A stretch of 34,185 bases of DNA from Bacteroidota bacterium (lineage in GTDB: Bacteria; Bacteroidota; Bacteroidia; CAILMK01; JACPUW01), in assembly GCA_020437725.1 (NCBI GenBank), contig JAGQWA010000003.1:1-34185 (forward strand), written 5' to 3'. Shown in pieces: positions 4,797 to 28,156 of the stretch (positions are counted from its first letter, which is position 1; the number at the start of each line of letters is the position of its first letter). Made by a program: the position numbers and the translations under genes. The notes beneath the pieces are model-generated. The model searched no databases. It worked only from the letters and a program-made list of their open reading frames with translations, and had not been told where the DNA came from.

Positions 4797-5013
4797 CTAC
4801 TCTATTATCAATTTGGCAGTTTTTAATTCTGACTCAAAACTTGCAACCATCACATATTGACCTGCAGAAAGAGTTGAAACATCAATTTCGTTGTGGTAAG
4901 TTTCTAATACCATTTCGCCTTGAAGGTTGTAGATTTTAACACTCAAAATAGTTGAGTTAGCACTTACTATAACCTTATTTGACGCTGGGTTGGGATATAT
5001 TTTGAAGTTTCTA
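4797..5013 (-). other. T9SS type-A C-terminal sorting domain of the 2933-aa protein
   Basis: RNFKIYPNPASNKVIVSANSTILSVKIYNLQGEMVLE...LSAGQYVMVA...KLIIE. This is the canonical Por/T9SS CTD pattern (TIGR04183-like). Confidence 0.85.
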
Positions 5014-11000: not shown

Positions 11001-13598
11001 ACCTAGCTGGTCGTAATTATTTCGTCCCCATGTAAAAACATGACCAGCATCTACCCTGGCAATAGTGTGATACATGCCACAATCAATTGATAGAACTTGA
11101 TTGCCAGAACCGTCGCCGAAGTAGGTAGTGCCATTATAATCGCCTTTTAAAACACTAACCGGCTCATTTGAAGTAGTTACACTGCCATTTCCTAATTGAC
11201 CATAAGCACAATTTCCGAACGAATAAACCTGACCGTTACTCGCCAAAATGCATGTAAAATCATATCCTGCTGATACTTGTAAAACTTCTAATGACCTATC
11301 ATCTCCAAAGTAAAATTGGCCAGAATATGAGCCTTTGAGCACTCTTACAGGTGTTCTTTGATTTGAATAATTGCCATTACCCAACTGGCCTTTGTAATTG
11401 TTACCAAAGGAATAAACAGTGCCTTTTGCAGAAACGGCCAAACTATGAGAACCACCAGCAGTAATATGCACAATAGGATCGTTTATGTCATCTCCTAAAT
11501 ATTGTGTTCCTTTATACGCGCCTTTGTGCACTCTAATTGGTGTATTTCTATAATTGGTAGTGTTGTCGCCCAATTGCCCATCACCGTTTAAACCGAAACT
11601 ATAAACTTGGCCATTTGCAGTAAGCACAATTGAATGATAATCACCTGCATCAATGGCCACAATTGGGTTTGCTGAATTATCTCCTAAATAAGTGGTTCCA
11701 TCATAATCGCCCATTTTTACTCGTACAGGTTCATATTCACTGGTGTTGTTTCCAATACCTAATTGGCCATAACCGTTACCGCCAAAAGCATACAACTTGC
11801 CGCTTTTTGTTAAAACCATAGAGTGGTTAGAACCTGCGGCCACTTGCACTACAGGATCGTTGGCGTCATCGCCTAAATAGGCAGTACCAGCATACTCACC
11901 CTTATTAACTTTTTGTATAGCTGTTTGATTGGTTGTATTGCCAATACCTAACTGGCCGGCGTTGTTTGCACCCATTCCTAAAGCAACACCAAACTCTGAA
12001 ATGCCAATAAAATGGCGGTTTACATCAACTTTTTTGGTGTTACGAGCCATAAAATAACTGCGTGCAGAAAAGGTGGTGCCTTTGCTATTGGTTGCTTTTA
12101 ATCGCACATAATACACTCTACCTGCAAGCAAATTGGTTAACTGAGCCGATTCAAATTTGGGCGTATAGCCGCTTACAGAATTTAGGGTTATTGATTCTCC
12201 GTAATTTGTGGTTAGGCCATACTCCAAAACAATACTGGTGAGCAAGCCATTGGGTTGAACCCAACAATTAATTTGAAGGCTGGTATCAGTGCAGGCCGAA
12301 ACCGGTGGAAAACGCAAATCGGGCACCGAAACATCATAACAACCCATGCTTGGATAGCCATACCTTGTAAGACCTTTTATATCTGGGTTGCCTTTATAGG
12401 TTATATCTCCTCTTGAAATAATGCCAAAAATTCTAGGATTAAGTCCGTCATCAGCAGTCATCAAAACACCATCATTGCCAATAAAATTAGACCCGCTGGT
12501 AAATGCCGAACTTATGCTGGTGTTAGAGAGATTTAAAACCACGGTTGAATTTGTAAGCACATTGCCTGAATTTCCATCGCTACTGGCGTTGTAATCTGTG
12601 CCTGATGACACAATTCCTGAACTAACGTCGGTGCCGGCATTGCTCATAAAAATGCAGCTGTTAATCATGCATTCTGCCTTGTTTCCACTCATTGAAATGG
12701 TGTAATCAGCACTTGCGCCTGTATTTTTTACCACCGAGACATTAATTACTTGCATGGTGGTTGAAACTGGACTAGAAGAATAATTGCTCTCATAAAAGAT
12801 AGCAGAACCTTTAATCTGTGCATGGTTTAGAAGCAATAAGCTATTAAGCAAAGTGGGCGCACCCCAATAGGTATAAATTGCGCCGCCATTTGCCTGCGCC
12901 TTATTATTAGTGAATACTGATTTAGAAACAGTTACCGAAGAATAAGACAGGTATAAACCGCCACCATTGTTTTTGTAGATTGAATGAGTGGCAGAACTGG
13001 TGGTTATGGCAATTGAACCCGTGTCGCTGGCATTTCCATCTTGAATAACTAAGTTTTCAAACTTGGTATCGGCGGTTAAATCAATACCAATAAATACATG
13101 GTAGCAGTTGTCGTTTTCAGAAGCTACGTTTCCAATATTTCCACTTAAAATGGTGTTGGCACCGGTTTGCTCGCCAGTAATTGAATTATAGCCGCCTTTA
13201 AGTTCAACATCGTGCCCAAATAAATAGAAGGCTTTATTTTGATTGTTGCTCGATGAATTGGGTGAGGCTGTTGGGTAATACGTTCCTTCGGCTATTCTAA
13301 TTTCATCAACATTGCTGCTCATATGCGCATTTAATGCCGATTGTAAACTAGTGTAAGCATTGCTCCATGAAGAGCCATTGTTGGTGCCTGTTGCTGTATT
13401 ATCTACATACAATATGCTTTGCGCAAATGTGAAAGAGCTCAAAAAAGCCAAAATCAAAATAGCCAAGGCTTTTTTAGATGCGGCTATTTTTTCGCCTATT
13501 TTCTTCAAGGCTTGCGATTGCAGTGATAATTTCTCTGAAAGCTCCAGACTTTTTTCTTCTTGCCCCAGTTCTTTGCTATTTGTTTTAACCTTAGCCAT
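4797..13598 (-). CDS. giant (2933 aa) T9SS-secreted multidomain surface protein: beta-helix, Fn3-like, RCC1 propeller, 2 x (sandwich + 2 LamG + beta-helix-like + sandwich), T9SS CTD
   Basis: Uninterrupted 8.8-kb ORF with ATG at 13598 and hydrophobic signal core ALAILILAFLSSFTFAQS. Domain motifs are listed in the sub-features below. All plus-strand ORFs in the track inside it are antisense artefacts. Confidence 0.9.
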   Translation of the reverse strand: MAKVKTNSKELGQEEKSLELSEKLSLQSQALKKIGEKIAASKKALAILILAFLSSFTFAQSILYVDNTATGTNNGSSWSNAYTSLQSALNAHMSSNVDEIRIAEGTYYPTASPNSSSNNQNKAFYLFGHDVELKGGYNSITGEQTGANTILSGNIGNVASENDNCYHVFIGIDLTADTKFENLVIQDGNASDTGSIAITTSSATHSIYKNNGGGLYLSYSSVTVSKSVFTNNKAQANGGAIYTYWGAPTLLNSLLLLNHAQIKGSAIFYESNYSSSPVSTTMQVINVSVVKNTGASADYTISMSGNKAECMINSCIFMSNAGTDVSSGIVSSGTDYNASSDGNSGNVLTNSTVVLNLSNTSISSAFTSGSNFIGNDGVLMTADDGLNPRIFGIISRGDITYKGNPDIKGLTRYGYPSMGCYDVSVPDLRFPPVSACTDTSLQINCWVQPNGLLTSIVLEYGLTTNYGESITLNSVSGYTPKFESAQLTNLLAGRVYYVRLKATNSKGTTFSARSYFMARNTKKVDVNRHFIGISEFGVALGMGANNAGQLGIGNTTNQTAIQKVNKGEYAGTAYLGDDANDPVVQVAAGSNHSMVLTKSGKLYAFGGNGYGQLGIGNNTSEYEPVRVKMGDYDGTTYLGDNSANPIVAIDAGDYHSIVLTANGQVYSFGLNGDGQLGDNTTNYRNTPIRVHKGAYKGTQYLGDDINDPIVHITAGGSHSLAVSAKGTVYSFGNNYKGQLGNGNYSNQRTPVRVLKGSYSGQFYFGDDRSLEVLQVSAGYDFTCILASNGQVYSFGNCAYGQLGNGSVTTSNEPVSVLKGDYNGTTYFGDGSGNQVLSIDCGMYHTIARVDAGHVFTWGRNNYDQLGLGSSSSTTYAKTPRAVIKGKSNSSYYFGDKKQGSVIWVKAGYFSSLGCTVTGQVYCFGSNVSGVLGNSNYSSGSAAPVDALNTDLLSGYLAYELIHTSSHHGLTVTKYKTNGIRNGYGIHFLSNGQSLTQTTNNIPASTNVVNRLNRTWQLEIKDILNNSGTVGLSFALGSNFNNDASYYLLQKTAQQTDFEIINNLDYGLYNDSVVFFLDGTALTNNTEITVGISDNGPGYSLAFDGQDDYVDIIQPYKTYNQFTTHDVSIEFWIKTNQNNTQAMIIDGDGGNNHGYSVLLFYGKIRFLYGNNIVTLQSQSSVANNQWTHVCITKNYRNMYSKMFINGVLESTKTNGVNDQLWTLSSKVRLGGGLRGGLAFNGKLDEVKFWSREREAPHIADSMNLHFEGNERLCAYYKFDQNEEQYLPDASGYGHQGKLYNFAYTGVNSNWLKSTAPLGGNSDKLLLKGVGKALSFSTNEYVPLRNNPQLGKTFTIEGWINAQNTTSSSKYGVIGGNSGDYTFYPKRIPPSIYVIGQNSIRLEYGNGTEQLSETISNVLTPGTWQHIAWTCQETSGNAEWKLYVDGVLVHTSTQTGVNYDYGLKAIGKVASSSFNGYMDEFRLWNTARSQTDLQQNMFKSVATSSSGLKHYFDFDASYTSTLPNIKDPSAYGELTNFADTNSCWISPLARQAYVSVNPGPYGSQFTWLNGRNPTSALHNVVINSYVIANLDQAANILYLDNNADFELNANYQVAKSIFDFGEIRGTGKTVMNGTSTQHIFGSGSHCGLEVNNGAQVILYNDRQFQDSVKLTNGKIHLYADIELTSGSIVGNSTSYIEFKYDLATIRLTLPTNSVTFPIGYANYTPLTIGNSQNYTVSIGLYNNLYSDPKFRSGTQTKDGISKTWVIDTDDSIPSAEIKVEWNASDVLSGFDSDYASMASMSARRIKTFWDKYGVSPTSSANGRDYLTRSGITMNNKKFYFGVGSDDSPYGELIYKIENGGAGSVISTSTRNELTLDAILTRFFMPRGGIQDVGDKIVMSKMQGDFVETTNNILASSNVSHRYERNWQIDVFDVDTNGGNIKLTFALGTQASPDFSYYLLERDGNTGDFTPINDINYLIDSNKIQFLINISNLHSGYNYTIGRSKEPAGYTLYFDGNNDYVDISNVANQVASSNATFEGWFVSKVNSRALISINSTGSTYKWVVNREGVYDPYTGLTAYSKPVTDNNWHHYALVIEDGVGYKVYIDGRKEADVSFTNFSLLSTDIISIGRTWVNNASSLFLSGKAEEVRIWNALRTEEDLNKNRFRSLVGNELNLVAYYRFDQTSETYLPDVSTNSYKGQLVNFGLTDTTSNWVKSTAPIVPKELAKQLMGPGNALKFDGSDDYVAVSNLRLGTEFTIETWLRHDNPSNGGLVPLFGKATGTLLSYRHPPNIFINNDTGIEIGYGNGFNPITKTYSGVIQRNTWHHVAWSCKSISGTSNYEWKLYVDGILVATETIASASFNNQINGIGSQQTGFYPGVLDELRFWGDARTQTEIQDNMYASLNGDEDDLLAYYTFDFTSGTSLTDESGNGYTGTLTNMDLSNCWVLANAREPFKTVRDGNNNIGTTWKDGSAPNSSTDKIAVFHDLTLAIAGTYKGFHVVSGKTVTTNANVTVTEEVIVNGTASGSGVLIMSGTAKQKLGGSGTLGALRIKNSNDVSLEGDLTITGNLTLDTGDIELNNFSLSLTGTTSHGNANSYLKINGTGRVKATIGSDPVILPIGRNPYLPVVISNGGDAEFSVGVSDKIYTDPTAPTTEITNQVVTETWTIQSSSAVNNVQVQIGWDAAQESNLTRANSGIGYWENGVSSSWNQAPYTTAATGSDPYFQTRTIDFSTNLYYLGVGGPGTPLPVELVNFDAYWVEEGQTAKLEWQTAQEYNNSHFEIDKSFDGTTWMQIGRVEGFGTTSDVNSYYFIDHSPQSTDHLSLSSVDRGQSTVYYRLKQVDYNGNFEYSQVTTLSVDERSRIQTRNFKIYPNPASNKVIVSANSTILSVKIYNLQGEMVLETYHNEIDVSTLSAGQYVMVASFESELKTAKLIIE
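5117..5172. repeat. 56-nt palindromic element translated in frame (copy in the 2933-aa gene)
   Basis: GACCACGGTCGACTGACGACAGACTTAAGTGGTCTGTGGACTGTGGACTATGGTCG. 48/56 identical to 14366-14421. Contains inverted repeat GACCAC/GTGGTC. Encodes ...SPQSTDHLSLSSVDRGQS... just before the conserved YYRLKQ motif. Confidence 0.65.
6410..7590 (-). other. LamG / concanavalin-A-like lectin domain pair (copies 3 and 4); boundaries approximate
   Basis: Starts GYTLYFDGNNDYVDIS and GNALKFDGSDDYVAVS. Ends AEEVRIWNALRTEEDLNKN and LDELRFWGDARTQTEIQDNM. The pattern (FDG.DDYV ... W ... [LM]DE.R.W...R) is typical of Laminin_G_3-type domains. Confidence 0.7.
9115..10315 (-). other. LamG / concanavalin-A-like lectin domain pair (copies 1 and 2); boundaries approximate
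   Basis: Starts GYSLAFDGQDDYVDI and GKALSFSTNEYVPL. Ends LDEVKFWSREREAP and MDEFRLWNTARSQTDLQQNM. Confidence 0.7.
10765..12010 (-). other. RCC1-like beta-propeller repeats (about 7 blades); boundaries approximate
   Basis: Repeating unit of about 55-60 aa: G.LY.FG.N..GQLG.GN......P..V, then YLGDD...P(I/V)V.(I/V).AG..HS..L. Examples are GKLYAFGGNGYGQLGIGNNTSEYEPVRV and GQVYSFGLNGDGQLGDNTTNYRNTPIRV. Confidence 0.8.
12040..12310 (-). other. Fn3-like beta-sandwich segment; boundaries approximate
   Basis: ...LQINCWVQPNGLLTSIVLEYGLTTNYGESITL...AQLTNLLAGRVYYVRLKATNSKGTTFS.... The YGxT...Y and L.PGT.YY.R..A.N..G pattern is typical of Fn3-like modules in Bacteroidota surface proteins. Confidence 0.5.
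12450..13420 (-). other. N-terminal right-handed beta-helix-like region (pectin-lyase fold / polymorphic-membrane-protein-like repeats); boundaries approximate
   Basis: ILYVDNTATGTNNGSSWSNAYTSLQSAL..., then NGGGLYLSYSSVTVSKSVFTNNKAQANGGAIY. These are GG[AG][IL]-type beta-helix repeat signatures. Confidence 0.55.
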
Positions 13599-17312: not shown

Positions 17313-19583
17313 CTAACCTTTTAGCTGTTCTAATGGCAATACCAAAGTAAATGTGGTTTGGCCAGGTTTGCTTTCTGCTTTTAAGGTTCCGTGGTGTTCT
17401 TTAACAATTTCTAGGCTAATAGATAATCCAAGCCCTGTACCCTTGCCAATTTCTTTAGTTGTAAAGAATGGGTCAAAGATTTTAGACATGGTGCCTTGTT
17501 CTATTCCAACGCCACTATCAGTTATTGAGAGTTTTATTTCGTTATCTAACTGCTCAGTTTTAATAACAATATTTCCTGTTTGTTCAATGGCCTGTACTGC
17601 GTTGCTAAGCAAATTCATTAGCACTTGATCAAGCTTTTCTCTGTAGCCTTCAATTATAGCGTTATCGGCAAAATCTTTCACAATTGAAATTCGGTCTTTG
17701 TAACTGCTGTGAAGCAACAACAAGCAGTTGTCTATGCTGGTATGCAAGTCAACCTTGCTAAGATTGCCTTTATCTGTTCTGGCATAAATTCTTAGTCCGC
17801 GCACTATTTCGGCTGTTCTATTGGCGCCTTTTGTGATACTATTGGTAATAAGATCTATTTCTTTAATAATCTCTTCAATCGAAGCATTTTTAGATACTTG
17901 CTCAGAATGCTTGTCTTTATTTAACAAGCTTTTTATATCGTTCAATTCCAGTTTTAAAGAGTCAATTCCGGCTTTTACGTAATTTATTGGGTTATTTATT
18001 TCATGTGCAATACCGGCAGTAAGTTGGCCTATGCTTGCCAATTTTTCGTTTTGTATAAGCTGTGCTTGTGTCTCCTTTAGCGTTTTATTAGCGGCATCTA
18101 ACTGACTAGTGCGTTGTTGCAAATTCTCTTTTTCGTTTATTAAGTTTTTATTGGTTTGTTTGAGTTTATTTCTGGTTGAAAACAAGATAAATAGAATGGC
18201 TATTAGTGCTCCCAATATGAGTAGCACTAGCATTGAAAAAAGAATAAGATTACGGTTTTGATGCTCTTTAATATTAAGCTTTTCAGTTGTTATACGACTT
18301 TTTTCTTCTGCCCTTTTAAGTTTAGCCTTTTGAAGTTTTTTCTCATTAAAGCTTTCTATAAAATTTAGCCTTTGTATAGTTTCTAAAGACACCAACGAAT
18401 CTTTTAACGCCATGTGTTTTGATAAGTGGAAGTAAGCAGAATCAGTATTTCCTTTTCGCTCATATACAAGTGAAAGCAGTTTATATGCGTTCTTTTTATG
18501 GGTAAAAAAATGGTTGCTATTGGCTAAGTAAAAACCTAACTGAGTATAATGCAAAGCGCTGTCTAGATTGTTGTTATTTATATAAGCTTCGCCCATACCT
18601 ATTAAAATAATGCACTTATTGGCGGGGGTTTTAAGCTTATAGCTTAGTTTTAATGCTTGTTTGTAGTATGCAAAAGCACTATCTAAAATGAGCTGATTGG
18701 CAAAATTCTGAGCCTTGTTGGTTAACAACTGCATTTCATGATAAGGGCTTGGTGCTCGTTTTAAATCTGTTGTGGCTTTATTATAGAAATGCAGTGCAGA
18801 ATCGTACTTCTCGGTGAAATTGTAAATAATGCCAATAAGCATGTTACTTCCAAAAATGCCTTTGAAATAGGTTGAGCTATCAGCGTAGAATTTGCCTATT
18901 TTGGCATATTTCATGGCGCGTTTATAGTCTTTTAGCTCAACGAAGCTAGAACCAATGTTTATAGCTATGTCGGCCATTTTTTGAGCCTTTTCAGTGGTGT
19001 AATTGCGGTTATACCAGCTTAGAATTTCTAAATAATTTGGAATGGCTTTGTCATGAAATCCTTGATTAAAGTCTTCTACCGCAATATTGGTAATGCACGA
19101 AATCACGTTGGTAGAATCATTTCTGGCAAGCGCCGCTTCTTTGGCCTCCATAAAAGTAAATCTGGCCGAATCGTTATACCCCAGGCGAGATTGAGCGGCC
19201 CCAATACGCATCATTAACGAGAAATACTGTTCTGTAAATGAGATAGAATGTGCTAATTTTTTAGCTTTTTGCCACTCTACAATAGCACGCTGAAACAAGC
19301 CTTGATAGAAATAGGTAAGCCCTATTGCGTTTAATGACGTTACTTGAGAGTTCGGTCTTTCTAGCGCTATAGCCAGTTGCAAGGCCTTTTGGGCAAAAAT
19401 TCTAGCACTGTCTAAATCGGTATCTAGATAGGCAAAGCTTAACCTTTGGTAGGTTTTGCAGTCGTTGCTGTCGTTTTTCTCTGTTAGGGCTTGCTTTAGG
19501 CTGTCAATTGTTACCTGTTGTGCGTTCACCATTACGGTGCCATAGCAAAAACAGAAACAAAGTATAACCCTTAAATTTTTCAC
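17313..19583 (-). CDS. sensor histidine kinase with extracytoplasmic TPR domain
   Basis: 756 aa. GTG start at 19583 gives signal-like MKNLRVILCFCFCYGTVMVNAQ. Multiple TPR-like repeats. TM helix LILFSMLVLLILGALIAILFILF, then a coiled coil. H-box LTAGIAHEINNPINY, N-box LLSNAVQAI, G1 DSGVGI, G2 GTGLGLS. Confidence 0.9.
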   Translation of the reverse strand: MKNLRVILCFCFCYGTVMVNAQQVTIDSLKQALTEKNDSNDCKTYQRLSFAYLDTDLDSARIFAQKALQLAIALERPNSQVTSLNAIGLTYFYQGLFQRAIVEWQKAKKLAHSISFTEQYFSLMMRIGAAQSRLGYNDSARFTFMEAKEAALARNDSTNVISCITNIAVEDFNQGFHDKAIPNYLEILSWYNRNYTTEKAQKMADIAINIGSSFVELKDYKRAMKYAKIGKFYADSSTYFKGIFGSNMLIGIIYNFTEKYDSALHFYNKATTDLKRAPSPYHEMQLLTNKAQNFANQLILDSAFAYYKQALKLSYKLKTPANKCIILIGMGEAYINNNNLDSALHYTQLGFYLANSNHFFTHKKNAYKLLSLVYERKGNTDSAYFHLSKHMALKDSLVSLETIQRLNFIESFNEKKLQKAKLKRAEEKSRITTEKLNIKEHQNRNLILFSMLVLLILGALIAILFILFSTRNKLKQTNKNLINEKENLQQRTSQLDAANKTLKETQAQLIQNEKLASIGQLTAGIAHEINNPINYVKAGIDSLKLELNDIKSLLNKDKHSEQVSKNASIEEIIKEIDLITNSITKGANRTAEIVRGLRIYARTDKGNLSKVDLHTSIDNCLLLLHSSYKDRISIVKDFADNAIIEGYREKLDQVLMNLLSNAVQAIEQTGNIVIKTEQLDNEIKLSITDSGVGIEQGTMSKIFDPFFTTKEIGKGTGLGLSISLEIVKEHHGTLKAESKPGQTTFTLVLPLEQLKG

Positions 19584-19627
19584 AATTCAAAAGTACAAGA
19601 GCACAATTCTCCTGCTGGCAAACAAGG

Positions 19628-19646
19628 GGTTACAAATGGTAAACAA
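19628..19646 (-). promoter_or_regulatory. GTTTACC direct-repeat motif, site 2
   Basis: The minus strand reads TTGTTTACCATTTGTAACC, starting 2 nt after the response-regulator stop (TAG at 19651-19649) and about 45 nt upstream of the kinase GTG start. Confidence 0.4.
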
Positions 19647-19648
19647 GG

Positions 19649-20686
19649 CTAAAGTGCTGCGAAATAATTATGCAAGTCTTCGCCGCCAGGTAATTCCATT
19701 TTTTTGCGCAAACGGTGGCGCGCTGTTTTAAGGCTATCCTGCGATATACCCAGAATGTCGGCAATTTCTTTTGAGCCGAGATTAAGCTTGAATAATGCGG
19801 CAAGTTTGCGATCTGATGCTGTTAAATTGGGGTGTTTACTTTCTAATTTGTTGTAAAAGTCTTGATGAACATTTTCAAAAACCTGACGAAAGCGATTCCA
19901 CTCCTTTTCTACGCTAAAACTATAGTCTATAAGGTTTACCAAGCTTCTGAACTTCTTGCTTGTAGAACTTTCAGTGCTCTTCATAATATTTTTCAACTCG
20001 ACCTTTAAATCGATTAATACCTGATTTTTTTGAATGAGTTGAAGGCTAAACGACGCTAATTCTTTTGACTTCTGTTCTAACTCTTCATTCAATTTTTCGT
20101 CAAAACCCAAGTTGCCGTTATTCTCATCGAGCTTTTGGGTTAAAATTTGATTTAACGTAGAGAGCTCAATATTAACTTCTTCTAGCTTTTGGTTTTGTTC
20201 TTCTAACTGCAAATTGCTTTGTTCCAGAGCCAATGTTCTTTCTGCAACGCGGCGTTCTAGCTCAACATTATGAGCTTCTAAACGCTGTATAAGCGACTTG
20301 TTTTGCTCTTGCAGCCTATAGACTTTATATCCGTTGTTTATTACGTTTTGAAGTTGAGATCTATCCCAAGGTTTGTTGATATAGTGATAGATTTTGCCTT
20401 CGTTTATGGCCGTAATTACATCTTCAAAATCTGCATAACCTGTTAGCAGAATTCTAATTATGGAAGGTTTCTTTTCTTTTAGCTCGGCAAAGAATTGAGT
20501 GCCTGTGCAAACTGGCATTCTTTGGTCAGAAACCACAACATGAATAAGCTCTTCGTTTAAAATACTCCAAGCTTCAGCCGCCGATTCAGCCACAAAAACA
20601 TTGAATTCGCGCTTAAACCCTGATCGAAAAACGATTAAGTTTTCTGCTTCATCATCAACATATAAAACATTAAGTTCCTTATTCAT
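19649..20686 (-). CDS. response regulator: REC domain, coiled coil, LuxR-type HTH
   Basis: The track ORF starts at TTG 20746. ATG at 20686 gives MNKELNVLYVDDE.... REC signature residues are DD (YVDDE), phospho-acceptor D in VVVSDQRMP, T in LLTGYAD and K in INKPW. C-terminal HTH: LTASDRKLAALFKLNLGSKEIADILGISQDSLKTARHRLRKKM. The C-terminal half aligns with the C-terminus of the 755-aa regulator. Confidence 0.9.
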   Translation of the reverse strand: MNKELNVLYVDDEAENLIVFRSGFKREFNVFVAESAAEAWSILNEELIHVVVSDQRMPVCTGTQFFAELKEKKPSIIRILLTGYADFEDVITAINEGKIYHYINKPWDRSQLQNVINNGYKVYRLQEQNKSLIQRLEAHNVELERRVAERTLALEQSNLQLEEQNQKLEEVNIELSTLNQILTQKLDENNGNLGFDEKLNEELEQKSKELASFSLQLIQKNQVLIDLKVELKNIMKSTESSTSKKFRSLVNLIDYSFSVEKEWNRFRQVFENVHQDFYNKLESKHPNLTASDRKLAALFKLNLGSKEIADILGISQDSLKTARHRLRKKMELPGGEDLHNYFAAL

Positions 20687-20746
20687 CAACCCCAAATTGC
20701 TGTTTGCGAATATGTGTAATTCTTGGTTTTCAAAAATTCGAAACAA

Positions 20747-22045
20747 TCAAACTTTCAGCTCTAAAATTTCCCACCAGTTATATTCACCTTCAAGTTTAAA
20801 AGTTACCAATCTTGTATGGCCTTTATCGTTGTAGAGCTCAACTAGGGCATAGGCAATTATATCATCTTTTTCGTGCTGAACTTCAACTACTTTGTACTCA
20901 AAATCAGCAGGCCATATAAAATCTTCGCACATAGATTGGTATAGTTCTAACAATTGATCAGCATCGCATTTCACATTGTTAACCATAATGGTTTCTTTGG
21001 CAAACCACATAAGTTTTTCCATGCTTTCACCCTTTTTCAAATAGTTCATGAACTCCTCAATTCTATTGGCTACGTCCATTTCTACATTTGGATGAAATTC
21101 TTCGTAAATAAAGCAGCTTACCCAACCAGATATCATTTCCTTCTCAATCTCTTGGTTGAATAATTCATTTAAAATGAAGTCGTACTTGGTTTTTGTATCA
21201 TATTCCCCTAAAAAATCTATTGCTACATTAATTGTCCCCAATTCTTCGAGCAAATTTTCGAAATGTGATTCAAGTTGTTGAGACTCAATTTTATTACTTG
21301 GTAAAAAGGTTTTATTCTCCAACAAGTTCTTTATCGAGACCATGGTTGGGTTTTCCATTGCCTTTTCAAAAGCCATCATGTTTTTCAAAAATTCATTCTC
21401 AACTTTAGGATCTATATTTCCATACCTTCCTATGGTAGCATTTTGCTGAGCTTCTAAGTTTAAGCGCATTATGGCATTTTCCATTTCAAGATCTTCATCT
21501 TGCGTCATCTCAATATCAAAAGGAACTCCATCTGCTTTGTCAAGCGCATTTTTATTCCACCAATAGTCAAATGAACTAAGCAACTCTTTGCCAAAATAAT
21601 TGGGTCTCAAGAAAATATTGCGTTCAACTCTTTTCCAACCAATTGCATCAAAATTTGGGTATTGATCCATTAGTGCTCTAACGCTATTCACTGAATCATT
21701 TAAATGACCAAGAAACTTTTTACTATTGGTTTTAGTGATTACTACTTCTGAGTTTGGGATATCTAATTTTTCTATTATTTCTTTTTTGAATCCCTGAATC
21801 TCCAGAAATTCCCTTAACCTGCTCTTAAAATCTGGAATAGCTTTAGCCAGACTTTTGTGTTTTGTAACAACAACCATTAGGCTAGGAACGTGCATAAAAA
21901 CCATGGCAAATTTGCCGCGCTCACCACCCGGAATGCGGTTTACAAACCACTCTTCTAATTCGCCGTATTCCTTTTCTTCAACTTCACCAAGTTGAATTTT
22001 ACCACTTGCATTTAAAACCTTTTGCGTTGCCCTAATTGTAAACAT
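20747..22045 (-). CDS. uncharacterised cytoplasmic protein (432 aa), first gene of the two-component operon
   Basis: ATG at 22045. No signal peptide or TM helix. Its stop lies 60 nt upstream of the response-regulator ATG. The N-terminal ~160 aa (MFTIRATQKVL...WFVNRIPGGERGKFAMVFMHVPSLMVVV...) loosely recalls DUF6933-type proteins; that is an unverified recollection. The C-terminal ~110 aa look like a small alpha+beta (NTF2-like) fold. Confidence 0.75.
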   Translation of the reverse strand: MFTIRATQKVLNASGKIQLGEVEEKEYGELEEWFVNRIPGGERGKFAMVFMHVPSLMVVVTKHKSLAKAIPDFKSRLREFLEIQGFKKEIIEKLDIPNSEVVITKTNSKKFLGHLNDSVNSVRALMDQYPNFDAIGWKRVERNIFLRPNYFGKELLSSFDYWWNKNALDKADGVPFDIEMTQDEDLEMENAIMRLNLEAQQNATIGRYGNIDPKVENEFLKNMMAFEKAMENPTMVSIKNLLENKTFLPSNKIESQQLESHFENLLEELGTINVAIDFLGEYDTKTKYDFILNELFNQEIEKEMISGWVSCFIYEEFHPNVEMDVANRIEEFMNYLKKGESMEKLMWFAKETIMVNNVKCDADQLLELYQSMCEDFIWPADFEYKVVEVQHEKDDIIAYALVELYNDKGHTRLVTFKLEGEYNWWEILELKV

Positions 22046-22310: not shown

Positions 22311-25300
22311 TCACGGGTGTCCAGTTTGGCAACTACACCCAGGTCTCATTGCACTTTTGGTTTCTTCATGCCATGGAAAAGCAGCATTGTAGCCGTTTAC
22401 TTCCCAATAGAATTTGCCACGTTCTTTTGGGTGATTGCCCACTTCGTTCATGGTTTCAGTATCGTACAAACGGCCGTTGATCATTACATGAGTTATGCTT
22501 TCGGTATTTCTAATGTCGTCAAGCGGATTTTGGTCCATGATGATTAAATCGGCCAGCTTGCCTTTTTTCAACGAACCAATATCAGCACTCATGCCAATGT
22601 AATCAGCGCCGTTAATGGTAGCCGCTTTTAGGGCTTCTAAATTGGTCATACCACCTTGTTGTAAGCTCCAAAGCTCCCAATGAGCGCCAAGACCTTGCAA
22701 TTGACCATGTGCACCTAAATTCACTTTTACGCCAGCATCTGCCAGCTTTTTACAGCTTTGGCTAACCAGAATGTGGCCATTATCATACTCTTCTTGCGGC
22801 ACCATGGTTCTGTGTCGACTGCGAGAATCAATAATCTCTCGCGGATAGTATTTCAACAGCTTTTCATTCTCCCAAACATTGGTGTTTTGGTACCAATAGT
22901 ATTCGGCATTTAAACCGCCGTAGTTAACAATGAGTGTTGGCGTATAACCAGTGTTGCTGGCACTCCAAAGTTCAATAATGTCTTTATAAACTGGTGCCAC
23001 AGGAATATTGTGCTCCACACCAGTATGGCCATCCATAATCATGGTCATGTTGTGGAAGAAAGTAGAACCACCTTCAGGAACCACAAAAATGTTTTCTTCT
23101 TTGGCGGCTTGAATAACCTGCTGACGCTGGTCTCTTCGTGGCTGGTTATAACTTTTTACCGAAAGCGCTCCAAATGCTTTGGTTCGGCGAATGCTGCTTC
23201 GGGCATCTTCCAAATTGTTTACCACCGCCTTTACATCAGCTTCGGCACCGTAAAGAATAAAACCAGTTGAGAACAAACGCGGACCAACCAATTCCCCAGC
23301 TTTTTGTAGTTCTGACAAAGCAAAAACGGTTTCGGTATTTGCTGAAGGATCATGTGCCGTGGTTACACCATACGCCAAATTCGCATAAAACTGCCAGTGT
23401 TTTTGGGTAGTAAGTCCGTAGCGGAATGCACCAATATGTGCATGCACATCAACCATTCCAGGCATTATGGTTTTGCCTGTTACATCAATAACCTTGGCGT
23501 TTGCACCCACTTGCACTGTACCCGATGGGCCAATTGCCGTAATTCGATTATCAGTTATTTCAATTTCACCGTTCTTAATTACAAGGTCGCCTTCCATGGT
23601 AATAATTCGGGCACCTTTTAAAACCGTAATTCCTTTAGGCTTATCGCATTTTAGCTCAAGACCCATTTCAATGCCTTTTTCAGACAATGGAGCCACTTCT
23701 TGGTCGGCACCATCTAAAAACGTAAAACGTTCTTTTAAGTCGGTTGAAAAATACTGGTTTCCTAAAGTCCACATTACTTTATCGCTTTCTGGCGACCAAT
23801 GGATGTTGATTCCAGCGTCTTTTGCCACTTGTTGAACGGGGAGTGAGTTGGTTTTGTCGTTTAAATCGATGGTTTGGCCAGTTTCAGGAAGCGGTGCTAA
23901 GTAAACCTTGTGCAAATGCTGAAAAGCCACCCATTTATTGTCAGGACTCAACACAAAACGATTGGCGTATTTTGACGAAATATGGGTTCGCACATCGTGG
24001 CCGTGCAAATCCATGCTTTGGTATTGCTTGGTGAGATTGCCGTAATAGTCGCCCCCAGTTTGAAAGAAAATGCGCTTTCCATCTTGACTGAAAACCGGAT
24101 ACTCGCCACTTTTTGAAACCAATTGCGGATTGGTACCGTCAGGGTTCATGATGTAAATGCCTGGATTTTTAGAATAAGCATGTCCTTGCTCATTATTGCC
24201 GCCTTCTTTTCTATATACAATTCGATTATCGGGTCCAAAACTTGGCGTTCTATAAATGCCTTTTCCGCTTGTATAGGTAGTCCATTTTCCACCAGTTGAA
24301 GGACAAACCCTTATCTCGCCCAGGTTTTCATCGTTCCAGCTCACATAAACAATATGCTTTCCATCAGGCGAAAACGAAGGTTCAAACTCAAAGTCGGTGC
24401 TGTTGGTTAAGCGTTTTGGCTTTCCATCAGGCAGTTTTTTAGACCATAAATAGCCTACTGCATTAAACACCACTTGCTTGCCATTTGGTGAAGTAATGGC
24501 TTGGCGAATTACTTTGGGGTTGAAGTTTTCAGTAAAAGCAGGATTTTCAAATTCCAATGCCTTGTTGATTTGCACTTTTACATCAGCTTCGAAAGGAATA
24601 ATACTCGACTCTAAAGTTTTAATGTTGAGCTTGTTGATTTTACCGCCAGCCCAAAATACCACGTGGTCGTTGTCGGGTAACCAATTGAAATTGGTGTACA
24701 CGCCAAACAAACACCAAGCTTCCATTTGGTCTTTGTTCAACTTGTCGTAAACAGGATACTCCTGCCCAGTTTCTAAATTATGAATGTAGAGAACCGACTT
24801 GGTTCTAACCCTTTTTACGAAAGCCAGCAATTTGCCATCAGGCGAAATTTGTGGACGAGCTGCACCGCCTGGGCCGCCAGTAACACGCTCGGTTTTCCCC
24901 GTTTCTAGGTTGTAGCGGTTTATTACGTAAATCTGGTCGTTAGGGTCTTTGTTGTATTGAAAATACCCACCTGGGTACATGTCTTCGCTGTAGTAGAGCC
25001 ATTTCTTGTCGGGCGATAAGCAAGGCTCGTTTACATCTTGTTGGTCGTTTTTGCGTTTGGTGAGCTGCAAACCACTGCCACCAGTTATGTGGTACATCCA
25101 CATTTCTCCAGCGCCTAATGAGCGCTCTGATGTAAAATGCTTGCGTGCTATTAGGTAATGCTCGTCTTTCCAAATGGCGTTGTTAATGAGCCTGAAAGAC
25201 TCTGTTGTTATTTGCTTGGCATCGCTCCCATCAGCTTTCATTACCCAGATATTGTCGCCACCACCGGCATCGCTGGTAAAGGAGATGTATTGGCCATCAG

Positions 25301-25604
25301 GGCTAAAACGCGGCTGAATCTCAAACGGAATGCCCGTACGCAAGGGTGTAGCCTTTCCTCCAGAAATAGGAATCTTGTAGATATCGCCCATCATATCAAA
25401 CACAATGGTTTTTCCATCAGGACTCACGTCTAGGTTCATCCAAGTGCCTTCGTCAGTTGTGAACTCATGGGTTTTCCATTCCCAATTACCAACGGGATTG
25501 CTAACATCCCATTTAGGTGGTTTATCACCGCCTTCGTCGGCTTTAAAGCTGGTGATGATAATTGCAGCAAGTGCAAAAAGCAAAGATTTTAGAGTGGTGT
25601 GCAT
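22311..25604 (-). CDS. secreted TolB-like beta-propeller / amidohydrolase fusion protein
   Basis: 1097 aa. Signal peptide MHTTLKSLLFALAAIIITSFKA. Repeated PD40/TolB-type blades (FSPDGQYISF, ISPDGKLLAF, FSPDGKHIVYV, LSPDNKWVAF). The C-terminal ~430 aa is a metal-dependent amidohydrolase with an HxH motif (MPGMVDVHAHIG). Confidence 0.85.
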   Translation of the reverse strand: MHTTLKSLLFALAAIIITSFKADEGGDKPPKWDVSNPVGNWEWKTHEFTTDEGTWMNLDVSPDGKTIVFDMMGDIYKIPISGGKATPLRTGIPFEIQPRFSPDGQYISFTSDAGGGDNIWVMKADGSDAKQITTESFRLINNAIWKDEHYLIARKHFTSERSLGAGEMWMYHITGGSGLQLTKRKNDQQDVNEPCLSPDKKWLYYSEDMYPGGYFQYNKDPNDQIYVINRYNLETGKTERVTGGPGGAARPQISPDGKLLAFVKRVRTKSVLYIHNLETGQEYPVYDKLNKDQMEAWCLFGVYTNFNWLPDNDHVVFWAGGKINKLNIKTLESSIIPFEADVKVQINKALEFENPAFTENFNPKVIRQAITSPNGKQVVFNAVGYLWSKKLPDGKPKRLTNSTDFEFEPSFSPDGKHIVYVSWNDENLGEIRVCPSTGGKWTTYTSGKGIYRTPSFGPDNRIVYRKEGGNNEQGHAYSKNPGIYIMNPDGTNPQLVSKSGEYPVFSQDGKRIFFQTGGDYYGNLTKQYQSMDLHGHDVRTHISSKYANRFVLSPDNKWVAFQHLHKVYLAPLPETGQTIDLNDKTNSLPVQQVAKDAGINIHWSPESDKVMWTLGNQYFSTDLKERFTFLDGADQEVAPLSEKGIEMGLELKCDKPKGITVLKGARIITMEGDLVIKNGEIEITDNRITAIGPSGTVQVGANAKVIDVTGKTIMPGMVDVHAHIGAFRYGLTTQKHWQFYANLAYGVTTAHDPSANTETVFALSELQKAGELVGPRLFSTGFILYGAEADVKAVVNNLEDARSSIRRTKAFGALSVKSYNQPRRDQRQQVIQAAKEENIFVVPEGGSTFFHNMTMIMDGHTGVEHNIPVAPVYKDIIELWSASNTGYTPTLIVNYGGLNAEYYWYQNTNVWENEKLLKYYPREIIDSRSRHRTMVPQEEYDNGHILVSQSCKKLADAGVKVNLGAHGQLQGLGAHWELWSLQQGGMTNLEALKAATINGADYIGMSADIGSLKKGKLADLIIMDQNPLDDIRNTESITHVMINGRLYDTETMNEVGNHPKERGKFYWEVNGYNAAFPWHEETKSAMRPGCSCQTGHP

Positions 25605-25723
25605 TGTGCAAAGGAAAATGTTCAGACCAATTATTTGAACAAGTGCATCACTTTTACAATCAAAATGCTATCACATTTTATTTTCGAGAACAGCAAGTTA
25701 TTAAGCAATTGTAAATTCGTTTT

Positions 25724-26503
25724 GTGGACAAGATTGGTGACATAGAAATAAGAGTTATTGGCAAATCAGGTAGTAAAGAATTACATCCTGACAACTATGA
25801 CATACGCCATATTGCAAGTATTTTACAAAACGTAGAAGAACTGTTATACCCTAACAACAAAAAAGATCGTCCACTTCTAACATATAACATTCAAGAAGGC
25901 TCGGTGCGCCATATCTTCAAAACACCAGCTCAATATGTGATTGGTTTCAGTGCAGTTTTAGCTCAGGTTCAAGCGACACAATCAATCGATTTTTTAGATT
26001 TAAAAACAGCTAGGGCATTGGAGAATATACAGAAACTTAGTATTGAAAAGGATTATTCATTTGAGTTCAACACATCTGTAAATGAAGGAGTTGCTCTAGT
26101 TATTAATCCCCAAACGCATTTCTACAGAACCGAAAACATTTGGGTGGATGCTGAATTTTATTTTTATGGAATACTCACCAATGCTGGCGGAAAAAGTAAA
26201 GCCAACATTCACCTTGACACTTCAGAATTTGGATCGCTGACCTTGAATACGAATAAAGACTTTCTGGAAGGACAAGAAGAAAATCTCCTTTATAAGCAAT
26301 TTGGCGTAAGGGTAATTGGGAAACAAAATGCAGAAACCGGAGAGATTGACACAAAATCTCTTGAACTTATTGAGCTCATAGACTATGAACAAAAATACAA
26401 TTCCGAATATCTATCCACACTCATATCAAAGGCTAAAAAAAGCTGGAAGGGCGTAAAAACTGACGATTGGTTGTTTGGCTTAAGAGGAGATTATGAAGCA
26501 TAG
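25724..26503 (+). CDS. hypothetical protein (259 aa), upstream partner of the PIN gene
   Basis: The ORF opens directly after an in-frame TAA. GTG at 25724 is the only conventional start, and there is no internal Met or Cys. No signal peptide, TM helix, P-loop or recognisable HTH/RHH/AbrB motif. It overlaps the downstream gene by 11 nt. Confidence 0.65.
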   Translation: MDKIGDIEIRVIGKSGSKELHPDNYDIRHIASILQNVEELLYPNNKKDRPLLTYNIQEGSVRHIFKTPAQYVIGFSAVLAQVQATQSIDFLDLKTARALENIQKLSIEKDYSFEFNTSVNEGVALVINPQTHFYRTENIWVDAEFYFYGILTNAGGKSKANIHLDTSEFGSLTLNTNKDFLEGQEENLLYKQFGVRVIGKQNAETGEIDTKSLELIELIDYEQKYNSEYLSTLISKAKKSWKGVKTDDWLFGLRGDYEA

Positions 26504-26975
26504 CGTGTTATTAGACACCAGTTTCTTCGTTCATTTGTTGAACGATGAAGATGCATTGCACAGAAATGCCTTGGGTTATTTTAATTACTTTCTGGATCAT
26601 GAAATCACCTTAAAAATCTCAACCATTTCTATCGCCGAGTATTGCGTTAGGGGAAAAATTGATGAACTGCCATTGAGAAATCTACAAATTATTCCGTTTA
26701 ATCTTAATCACGGAAAACGCACAGGTGAATTTGCTAGAATTTTATTTGATGCTAACCATCAAAACCAGCTCAATTTGACTCCCAGAGCCATCATCCCGAA
26801 TGATTCGAAACTTTTTGCACAGGCTGATCTTGATCAAACTGTAACTCATTTTGTAACATCAGATGTGAGGTCTAACAAAACGTTTAATACCCTTAAATCT
26901 AATGAGCATCTAAAATTTGAAATAATTGATATTTCCACTCCATATAATGAGAGATTCGGCGTATTAAACTTTTAG
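26493..26975 (+). CDS. PIN-domain (VapC-like) ribonuclease
   Basis: 160 aa. The four conserved acidic residues fall in PIN-typical contexts: D8 (LLDTSFF), E49 (SIAEY), D104 (IPNDSKL) and D124 (VTSDV). The ATG at 26493 overlaps the stop of the upstream gene. Confidence 0.8.
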   Translation: MKHSVLLDTSFFVHLLNDEDALHRNALGYFNYFLDHEITLKISTISIAEYCVRGKIDELPLRNLQIIPFNLNHGKRTGEFARILFDANHQNQLNLTPRAIIPNDSKLFAQADLDQTVTHFVTSDVRSNKTFNTLKSNEHLKFEIIDISTPYNERFGVLNF

Positions 26976-27046
26976 CCAGAACTATTTTTATTCACCATAA
27001 AGACTATTTCAAGGCTATTTGCAACATTCAAATTAAAATAAACTGT

Positions 27047-27813
27047 TTAATTTGAGTATTGATACTCTATATAAAACTTATTGGCACTTCTAAATTTAAA
27101 TCTTTCGACACCAACATTTAGTTGCCGGCCACATTCATCTTTATGGTCATTGTATAGAACCTTGTTTTCATGATAATTGCAGATTTCTGAGATATAAAAG
27201 CTATTTTCTACATGCTTCACATTCTTCGAATTCCCAAGGCTATAGCTAATGAAGTTTCCGAAGTTTAATGGTGAATTCTCCTTTTCAAAAGTTATCAAAA
27301 CAGAGTCTTTTGAGTTGGGATATCTTTTGAAATTGCAGGCTTTAAAAGTGCCATTTGCAATATCAAATTTCCTTATCTTTTTTGCAGCTTTTGGGGGAAT
27401 ATATTCATGTCGATTTTGAAAAGTAGTAACCGAGTTACTTACAGAATAACCTGTCTGTGCAAGACTTGTGTTTGGCCAATTCGAGCTGATTGACGCGGAA
27501 CTCATAGTGGCCGTTGAACTGCCGCTAACAATTTGATTGTTAAATTAGTCAAAATCTTGACCATTTCTTATATAAAATGTTTTGTCTAAGTGAATCATAA
27601 TGATAGAGTCTGTCTTATTAAATATCGAAAATCCAATATCACCCATTTCTCCTCAGAAGTCATATGCAATTATGCAATTGTTGTCTTCATAAAATATGCC
27701 GTTCTCTTTTAATGTTAAATCTATCGAAGTTTTGCCTCTATAACCTGATAATATTTATATGACCCACAAGAAATTGTAAAAAGAGAAATCAATAAAATAA
27801 GAGAATTTTTCAT
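27047..27813 (-). pseudogene. decayed lipoprotein gene (one frameshift and two in-frame stops)
   Basis: ATG at 27813 opens a lipoprotein signal (MKNSLILLISLFTISCGS) that ends at TAG 27723-27721. A second frame, open from 27754, continues ...GKTSIDLTLKENGIFYEDNNCIIAYDF. It is then broken by TGA (27655-27653) and by TAA (27547-27545). That same frame runs into the track ORF 27047-27505. Confidence 0.45.
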
Positions 27814-28024
27814 TTCAATAAATAATTGAATTTAGAATTACAATACTAAGCTCCTTTTTTCAATTATTCTTAAAGTAGTTTGCAAATACAACGCATTTAT
27901 TTCCATATTACTACCATTTTTTATCGTTTTACTACACCTGACCTACAAAAGCCTTTATTTGAAGAACAAAATCCGTAATCTCCACCAAAATAAAAATGCT
28001 TGTTTTCTATTTCACAATTTCTAT

Positions 28025-28136
28025 TTCGAGTAACTAGAATTCACTCGCTACTGACAGAAATCTAGTACGTGAACTAGACCTACCCTTTATTCTAAAATCA
28101 CTTCTAATTCCAGTAACTTTCCCACATCATCTTCGT
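28025..28136. repeat. 112-bp direct repeat, copy 1
   Basis: TTCGAGTAACTAGAATTCACTCGCT...CCCACATCATCTTCGT. 108/112 identical to 29574-29685. Contains hairpins CGAGT-N11-ACTCG and TCTAGT-N6-ACTAGA. Ends 20 nt before the serine-hydrolase ATG. Confidence 0.9.
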
Positions 28137-28156
28137 CATAAATCAAACTCCATAAT

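Follow-up and report, generated by a model that had tools for sequence, protein, structure and literature searches.

PIN/VapC toxins form the largest toxin-antitoxin (TA) superfamily, and their known partners are small DNA-binding antitoxins. VapBC antitoxins are proteins of about 70–90 aa with an N-terminal DNA-binding domain of the AbrB, ribbon-helix-helix (RHH), Phd/YefM or helix-turn-helix (HTH) type, and new antitoxin families are found regularly. In NetFlax-type pairs (PanA and others; PMC10440598), which were found via two-gene synteny, a PIN/VapC-like toxin is joined to a non-classical antitoxin. Here we describe a pair of overlapping genes, A and B, in a 34,185-nt stretch of DNA from a Bacteroidota bacterium (contig JAGQWA010000003.1 of assembly GCA_020437725.1), which is called the window below. 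B is a predicted PIN nuclease and A is a large acidic protein without a recognisable antitoxin domain (Table 1). Using Shigella/F-plasmid MvpAT-VapBC (PDB 3tnd, 9h6a) and M. tuberculosis VapBC15, VapBC11 and VapC20 as comparators, we think it on balance probable that the two genes make up an autonomous TA-like module of the VapBC type, bicistronic and horizontally transferable, with a new kind of partner.

Table 1. Positions of the A–B genes and of their parts in the window.
Feature	Position	Strand	Description
Gene A	25724–26503	+	GTG start, 259 aa; acidic protein of an apparently uncatalogued family; proposed neutralising/regulatory partner of the PIN nuclease
Gene B	26493–26975	+	ATG start, 160 aa; VapC-like PIN-domain nuclease (predicted); proposed toxin/effector
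A/B overlap ATGAAGCATAG	26493–26503	+	11 nt; last codons of A and ATG of B; putative translational coupling
-7 box TAAATTCG	25712–25719	+	Bacteroidota sigma-A consensus TAnnTTTG; 4 nt between its end and the GTG start
A residues 1–139	25724–26140	+	N-terminal alpha/beta region (two-layer sandwich-like), from AF2 secondary structure, weak Foldseek matches and alignment conservation
A residues 140–222	26141–26389	+	Five-stranded OB-like beta-barrel, from AF2 model, weak Foldseek matches and 100-sequence alignment
A residues 241–259	26444–26500	+	Low-confidence C-terminal tail, probably disordered; may be the PIN-binding/neutralising segment
PIN acidic codons of B	26514–26864	+	D8 26514–26516, E49 26637–26639, D104 26802–26804, D124 26862–26864; read in the window sequence

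A preliminary description of the window had proposed that the pair is a non-canonical TA or defence module. The lengths and start codons that it gave for the two open reading frames (ORFs), and the overlap between them, were exact, and the pair does lie on the plus strand between minus-strand genes (22311–25604 and 27047–27505).

Pairing of the two genes was nearly invariant. Among 87 loci found with A as the seed, 79 carried A and B with the identical 11-nt overlap, and A was always 780 nt long in these. Since seeding with A could conceal losses of A, a reciprocal scan seeded with B was made. The same overlap was present in 65 of 66 full metagenome pairs, and when an intact B was accompanied by enough upstream sequence (n=69), A was intact upstream in 65 loci and absent in none. 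The other four consisted of two alignment-start artefacts, one locus misclassified by a filter (L178) and one frameshift (L135). Pairing and overlap are conserved in more than 140 loci across phyla. Divergent A lineages (33–52% identity) retained the PIN partner with an overlap of 11 or 4 nt, apart from L099 (see below), and synteny with PIN genes, which the preliminary description had named as a check on its proposal, was essentially absolute, including relatives that are 22–35% identical. These include a pair on plasmid pA of Bordetella bronchiseptica (L093, NZ_CP132331.1, 34497–35762), in which A and B are 22% and 30% identical to the window's proteins and were matched to them by hhalign with probabilities of 98% and 99.3%, respectively. 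Searches of phages, plasmids and E. coli for a proteobacterial branch yielded this single Bordetella plasmid only.

Two observations concern loci at the margins of this distribution. The Bordetella pair has a 12-nt spacer instead of the overlap and is carried on a 39-kb non-mobilizable plasmid, possibly a phage-plasmid; 15 of 16 annotated genes in the 10-kb stretch viewed encode hypothetical proteins. At L099 (1006–1788) an orphan A, 34% identical to that of the window, has no PIN gene downstream and lies near a Toprim_2 gene, so that in some lineages A may act on its own.

When 961 flanking ORFs were clustered, A and B were the only recurrent genes. The next-largest cluster comprised 7 loci, all accounted for by within-genus synteny in Lutibacter, and no third component of the module recurred. 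Flanking sequences were unrelated between loci, and Pfam assignments of the neighbours were mostly metabolic or housekeeping. The lack of a recurring third gene, together with unrelated housekeeping flanks, argues against a defence island. In 77 loci, ~4–5 of 149 neighbour proteins matched defence models, mobile-element genes were not enriched among the neighbours either, and both contexts were rejected as descriptions of the locus. No family in PADLOC-DB v2 matched A or B at E values up to 1. Distribution was patchy, with 320 hits in ~185,000 species genomes, and five IMG/VR contigs carried the pair amid phage genes (primase/helicase, Erf, baseplate hub, tape measure, HNH, methyltransferases); it was not found in GenBank phages or in E. 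coli genomes. In searches for the ends of the element, no flanking repeats above chance were detected and nothing was conserved 3′ of B. A–B is an obligate, self-contained, horizontally mobile two-gene module.

The preliminary description had also placed the pair next to a decayed gene and a repeat-bracketed cassette, in the kind of setting where defence or addiction modules accumulate. This was not borne out, as no repeats bracketing the pair in the window rose above chance, its neighbours are ordinary chromosomal genes, and the survey of 77 loci gave no enrichment; a location in defence islands, which had been suggested for checking, was likewise not found (~4–5 of 149 neighbours).

The two genes decay asymmetrically. 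B was inactivated while A remained full-length in at least 11 of the A-seeded loci, by nonsense codons (L042, L053, L065, L087; L053 is an isolate genome), frameshifts (L073, L085), deletions (L009, L041, L067), an insertion sequence (IS; L069) or an inserted gene for a type IX secretion system (T9SS) cargo protein (L081). Both genes were broken in L061. A broken A with an intact B was seen among A-seeded loci only in L074, and the same Lutibacter metagenome-assembled genome (MAG; DAIQBF01) contains a second locus, L047, with an intact A. When scaled by gene length, 1 A-only versus 11 B-only inactivations gives a binomial p of ~2e-4. The sole candidate disruption of A in the B-seeded scan (L135) is a frameshift within seven consecutive A's on a contig of 1.7 kb and may be an assembly error.

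Decay of B with A kept, and the finding that an intact B never occurs without A, are expected if B is harmful without A. Neither a cooperative enzyme nor a purely activating sensor would be expected to show this asymmetry. The pattern suggests, as far as decayed gene copies can indicate, that A keeps B in check, like an oversized antitoxin. Of the two halves of the preliminary proposal, the TA reading therefore gained support, from B decay with A kept and from the absence of intact B without A, while the defence or addiction context did not. Its further suggestion, that A is a sensor/antitoxin fusion, is conjectural; the A model does contain additional globular domains, among them an OB-like barrel.

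Some of the decayed loci have features of their own. In the Lutibacter MAG the decay is complementary: L074 has a nonsense codon in A and an intact B, and L047 has an intact A and a C-terminally truncated B, a pattern that would fit neutralisation in trans between copies. The element in L069 (6868–8182, Mariniphaga MAG) is ~1.3 kb long, contains IS4-like transposase ORFs, and lies in B after residue 32. In L081 (3402–4331, Flavobacteriaceae MAG) a 309-aa ORF starts at B's own start, and its first 10 residues, MMNSVLLDKS, resemble the B N-terminus; it then runs into a secreted T9SS cargo-like protein, and B sequence picks up again downstream at residue 12, which makes for an unusual disruption of the nuclease gene.

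B was modelled with AlphaFold2 (AF2) at a predicted local distance difference test (pLDDT) score of 91.6. The model matched VapC structures (9h6a, 3tnd, 4chg, 5wzf, 6a7v) with Foldseek E values of ~1e-5 to 1e-3 and template modelling (TM) scores of 0.55–0.72. The acidic quartet described earlier (D8, E49, D104 and D124) is present and was invariant in an alignment of 45 family members, in which the surrounding motifs are DTSF, AEYC, PRAIIPND and TSD. The window's B scored below the Pfam PIN threshold (PF01850; 18.9 vs 23.6 bits), and its assignment as a PIN protein, made in the preliminary description by inspection of the sequence, therefore depends on the fold and on relatives: several of these exceed the PF01850 threshold or carry the NCBI name VapC. 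On this basis B is predicted to be a VapC-type PIN nuclease. It differs from a typical VapC in being ~25–30 aa longer, with an insertion at about residues 85–100 and a C-terminal extension.

Homologues of A number more than 1,600, nearly all of 259 aa and ~70–75% identical, in Flavobacteriales, Cytophagales, Chitinophagales/Saprospiraceae, Bacteroidales, Pedobacter, Balneolales and Ignavibacteria. An exhaustive profile search reached 688 representatives at 50% identity, almost all of 250–265 aa. None of the catalogues searched recognised the family. Against Pfam the window's A gave one sub-threshold match, to DndB (E = 0.0099), and nothing else; NCBIfam and PADLOC gave no matches, PHROGs only E values above 0.2, and profile searches of PDB sequences nothing meaningful. 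A Pfam scan of 100 diverse members listed 25 families, none matched by more than one member. The DndB assignment was rejected, the match being sub-threshold and not reproduced by any other of the 100 scanned members. The same scans, which included family members, found no HTH, RHH, AbrB or Phd domain and no P-loop, in agreement with the reading of A by eye. That A is unrecognisable held as well: family, PDB-sequence and AlphaFold plus Foldseek searches gave no characterised family, and A is, to judge from these comparisons, a member of an uncatalogued one.

A is acidic (pI 5.2–5.3). Its AF2 model is of moderate confidence (pLDDT 73) and falls into three parts: an alpha/beta region from residue 1 to ~127–139, a barrel from 140 to ~220–222, and C-terminal helices followed by a tail (241–259). 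Near-invariant residues in the N-terminal region, identified in a deep alignment, are D26, G59-S60 and Q103, and Foldseek matched this region weakly to ferredoxin-like designed proteins. The barrel is the most conserved block of the family, with the highest information content in a 100-sequence alignment; E144, Y146, Y148, G149, an AGGK loop at 154–157 (G155-G156), H163 and Y190 are conserved. It resembles oligonucleotide/oligosaccharide-binding (OB) modules, namely RPA32/RPA14, IF1, the large subunit of ExoVII and the OB domain of DNA ligase. These matches are weak (E ≥6e-3, TM ~0.2–0.25 on the query) and come without sequence similarity, and any ligand binding by A is putative. Matches to DNA ligases and capping enzymes (4d05, 6gdr and phage ligases; TM ~0.2, root-mean-square deviation (rmsd) >11 Å) apparently reflect the OB domain alone, and A was rejected as an enzyme of either kind. 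In the tail, pLDDT falls below 50 at 241–244 and 246–259, and W241, W249 and R254-G255 are conserved. R254 is conserved in at least 90% of sequences at ~35% mean identity and is also found in the non-overlapping Bordetella pair; W241 and R254-G255 survive likewise.

In a Foldseek search of predicted viral structures (BFVD), the top full-length match of A was a DUF6575 phage protein (E = 2e-8). A functional screen in E. coli reported DUF6575 as a domain newly linked to defence (Vassallo et al. 2022, PMC9519451). The superposition has a TM score of 0.30 and an rmsd of 11.6 Å over 265 aligned columns with a query model of pLDDT 73; DUF6575 was not among the 25 Pfam families listed for the 100 A family members, and PADLOC gave no hit. 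We treat the resemblance as a lead only, not as a relationship.

Two peculiarities of A were noted. Apart from its initiator, the window's A has no Met and no Cys, as described earlier; in the close A clade Met and Cys amount to 0.36% and 0.05%, versus 2.2% and 0.9% in neighbouring proteins, with a milder depletion across the deep family (1.2% and 0.34%). In B, too, Met is scarce (0.34%). Possible reasons are resistance to oxidation, sulphur economy or a need to avoid internal starts. In P0337 and P0359, A is joined to unrelated histidine-kinase/response-regulator or beta-lactamase sequence. Because A is truncated there, these were rejected as domain fusions and taken as truncations or chimeras.

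Sequence conserved between loci upstream of A is limited to ~25 nt. In 53 of 66 loci a TAnnTTTG box begins at -12 (41 loci) or -13 (12 loci) relative to the start codon, with an A-rich tract upstream. The Flavobacterium -7 element lies at -12 to -5, with 4–5 nt to the transcription start (PMC6847099, PMC9723704). With the box only 4 nt from the start codon, the A–B mRNA is predicted to be leaderless and to begin at the start codon itself. This codon is GTG in 48 of the 66 loci, ATG in 17 and TTG in one. Leaderless translation normally favours AUG. In Flavobacterium, leaderless mRNAs constitute only ~5.5% of the total (PMC6847099, PMC9723704), and the prevalence of GTG is unusual on both accounts. 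The upstream alignment of the 66 loci contains the -7 box and the A-rich tract and no conserved palindrome or operator. Both this and the absence of a DNA-binding domain from A speak against autoregulation of the classical antitoxin kind.

Both genes are under strong purifying selection. Synonymous sites are saturated, with a median proportion of synonymous differences (pS) of 0.75; the corresponding nonsynonymous values (pN) are 0.15 for A and 0.18 for B and are correlated between the genes (r = 0.90). The ratio of nonsynonymous to synonymous rates (dN/dS), calculated from 159 unsaturated pairs, comes to 0.059 in A and 0.091 in B. Of the two genes A is the more conserved, and it has no indels across 68 loci. 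The gene tree conflicts with taxonomy: an Ignavibacteria copy (A+B) shares 91% identity with one from Flavobacteriales and 86% with those from Chitinophagales and Cytophagales. In the window, GC content is 35–36% across the pair and 42–47% in the upstream gene, and the lower GC of the pair and of the ~1.1 kb that follow fits acquired DNA. Saturated dS, low dN/dS, the conflict between tree and taxonomy and the GC contrast argue that the module is old, horizontally moving and under unusually strong constraint.

Covariation between A and B was measured as mutual information with average product correction (effective number of sequences ~81). Positions encoded in the overlap ranked at the top, as an internal control, and the signal was otherwise diffuse; within it, covariation of A251 with B86 and B125 is a weak hint.

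The resemblance of the locus to VapBC lies in a downstream VapC-like PIN fold with four conserved acidic residues, an upstream overlapping partner gene in a bicistronic arrangement, an acidic partner whose disordered, conserved C-terminal segment bears an Arg, and a mobile, patchy module in which decay falls preferentially on the toxin gene. Type II logic is also matched by the order of the genes, with the proposed neutraliser first, by the acidic character of A and by its disordered conserved tail. The differences are also marked: A is largely folded and 259 aa long instead of ~70–90; it has an alpha/beta region and an OB-like barrel in place of an AbrB, RHH, Phd or HTH domain; its promoter has no conserved palindromic operator; it is more conserved than the toxin; and its mRNA is predicted to be leaderless and is mostly GTG-initiated. 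NetFlax-type pairs differ in other respects, as A matches no Pfam family (DUF4065/PanA included), its family was not found among described antitoxin domains, and its pairing is exclusive to one PIN subfamily, not promiscuous. No description of the A–B module was found in NetFlax (PMC10440598) or in the classification of the PIN superfamily (PMC5499597).

A mechanism can be proposed on this basis. Transcription from the sigma-A promoter abutting the start codon would produce a leaderless A–B mRNA, from which A would be translated first and B by coupling via the 11-nt overlap. B would act as a Mg2+-dependent endoribonuclease of the VapC type, toxic when free, with tRNA or rRNA as the probable target. 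Folded, acidic A would bind B and hold it inactive, and the most likely inhibitory element is the tail (W...W...R254-G255), which could reach the acidic active site as VapB tails do. Classical antitoxin autoregulation is probably absent, given that A has no DNA-binding domain and the promoter no conserved operator. Finally, release of B would be governed by a conserved ligand, either nucleic acid or a factor of the cell or of a phage, to which the large constrained body of A probably binds.

Several points weigh against this proposal. A lacks every canonical antitoxin feature, being three times the usual size, mostly folded, and without a DNA-binding domain or a conserved operator. That A binds B and that B is toxic are inferences. 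The model of A is only moderately confident (pLDDT 73), with an OB-like label that comes from weak Foldseek matches, and the inter-protein covariation is not decisive. Some of the broken-B loci are MAGs, in which assembly errors are possible, although at least one (L053) is an isolate genome. Finally, greater conservation of A than of B, dN/dS of 0.06–0.09 and the lack of indels go beyond what is usual for conflict systems, and would fit a cooperative two-subunit enzyme too.

Could defence be the function that is selected? A would then be mainly a sensor in an abortive-infection or anti-phage system, recognising phage nucleic acid or protein through its OB-like barrel and licensing the PIN effector upon infection. 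Many TA modules act in defence, and this explanation overlaps with the TA-like module that we favour. A patchy distribution shaped by horizontal transfer (320 hits in ~185,000 genomes, with near-identity between phyla), carriage on phage contigs and a plasmid, and a layout of nuclease effector plus large partner would all be accommodated, as would the DUF6575 phage protein as top full-length structural match (E = 2e-8), at a TM score of only 0.30 and with no sequence match to DUF6575 listed for the 100 A members scanned. It sits poorly with the lack of any PADLOC match for A or B even at E = 1, with neighbours that are not enriched for defence genes, and with strong purifying selection without indels, which is unlike typical arms-race genes. 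A purely activating sensor also predicts loss of A as often as loss of B, which is not what the decayed loci show. On this evidence we consider defence as the selected function unlikely.

The strong constraint on both genes raises the alternative of a cooperative two-subunit ribonuclease, in which A, through its OB fold, targets the PIN subunit to a conserved RNA in accessory RNA processing or quality control, and B alone is harmless. Housekeeping-like conservation (dN/dS 0.06–0.09, saturated dS, no indels in A) is what such an enzyme would have, and a folded A that is more conserved than B, with its most conserved block in the OB-like barrel, is readily explained; housekeeping neighbours and vertical inheritance within a genus (Lutibacter synteny) point the same way. 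A core function is nevertheless hard to reconcile with how few genomes carry the module, with its evident horizontal transfer, and with phage and plasmid carriage. Moreover, such an enzyme predicts that the two genes are lost about equally often, or that the larger one is lost faster, whereas B was lost ~11 times with A intact and A almost never with B intact. We judge this alternative quite improbable.

Chance adjacency or mis-called ORFs without a functional pairing, in whose favour nothing could be cited but a Pfam PIN score below threshold for the window's B, is refuted by pairing and overlap conserved in >140 loci across phyla, by purifying selection on both genes and by the confident PIN fold; both ORFs are real genes, with >1,600 (A) and >2,800 (B) homologues and dN/dS of 0.06 and 0.09.

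The TA-like reading can be carried further, to a version that we regard as speculative and rather doubtful as a whole. A might represent a new class of large sensor-antitoxins, in which the barrel binds nucleic acid or a cellular or phage factor, the Arg-bearing tail plugs the PIN site, and binding or displacement of the ligand frees the RNase. Bacteroidota and neighbouring phyla would then possess a widespread module for abortive infection or stress that had gone unrecognised. Its conservation would come from contacts of both proteins with an invariant host target, and the leaderless, mostly GUG-initiated mRNA would be part of its control.

What sets the pair apart is that a single PIN subfamily is tied to a large, folded, uncatalogued partner that is more constrained than the nuclease, and that the family of this partner spans hundreds of 50%-identity clusters in several phyla, phages and a plasmid. 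Partner size and fold, conservation above that of the toxin, housekeeping-level constraint on a mobile module, the predicted leaderless, mostly GUG-initiated design and the breadth of the family are all unusual. If A is the neutraliser, it would represent a new antitoxin architecture, and the pair would offer a tractable case for how a TA-like module can be mobile and yet conserved like a housekeeping gene. Through the module, thousands of hypothetical proteins from marine and sediment Bacteroidota would receive a name and a function open to testing. The operon, conserved, predicted to be leaderless and mostly GUG-initiated, would also be a natural example of such a design in a phylum with rare leaderless mRNAs.

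Control by an RNA element was also considered. The region 25300–27700 contained no Rfam match that reached threshold and the A–B pair no tandem repeats, and a type III RNA antitoxin or a riboswitch was rejected on these grounds. No intrinsic terminator was called 3′ of B.

The minus-strand gene at 22311–25604 encodes a PD40/amidohydrolase protein. That at 27047–27505 is an orphan 152-aa ORF with no Pfam match, which did not recur at other A–B loci. The pair, this ORF and an AT-rich spacer of ~650 bp make up a low-GC block at 25600–28150 (28–36%, versus 42–47% upstream), which is possibly one acquired block; the spacer contains a 25-nt tandem repeat at 27790–27845 (2.2 copies). Upstream of the amidohydrolase gene, a minus-strand group at 17313–22045 encodes a tetratricopeptide repeat (TPR)-histidine kinase (756-aa ORF), a response regulator whose C-terminus resembles LuxR/sigma-70 region 4, and a DUF6933 protein of 432 aa; no link from this group to the A–B pair was seen. 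Elsewhere in the window, a very large ORF of 2,933 aa occupies 4797–13598 on the minus strand.

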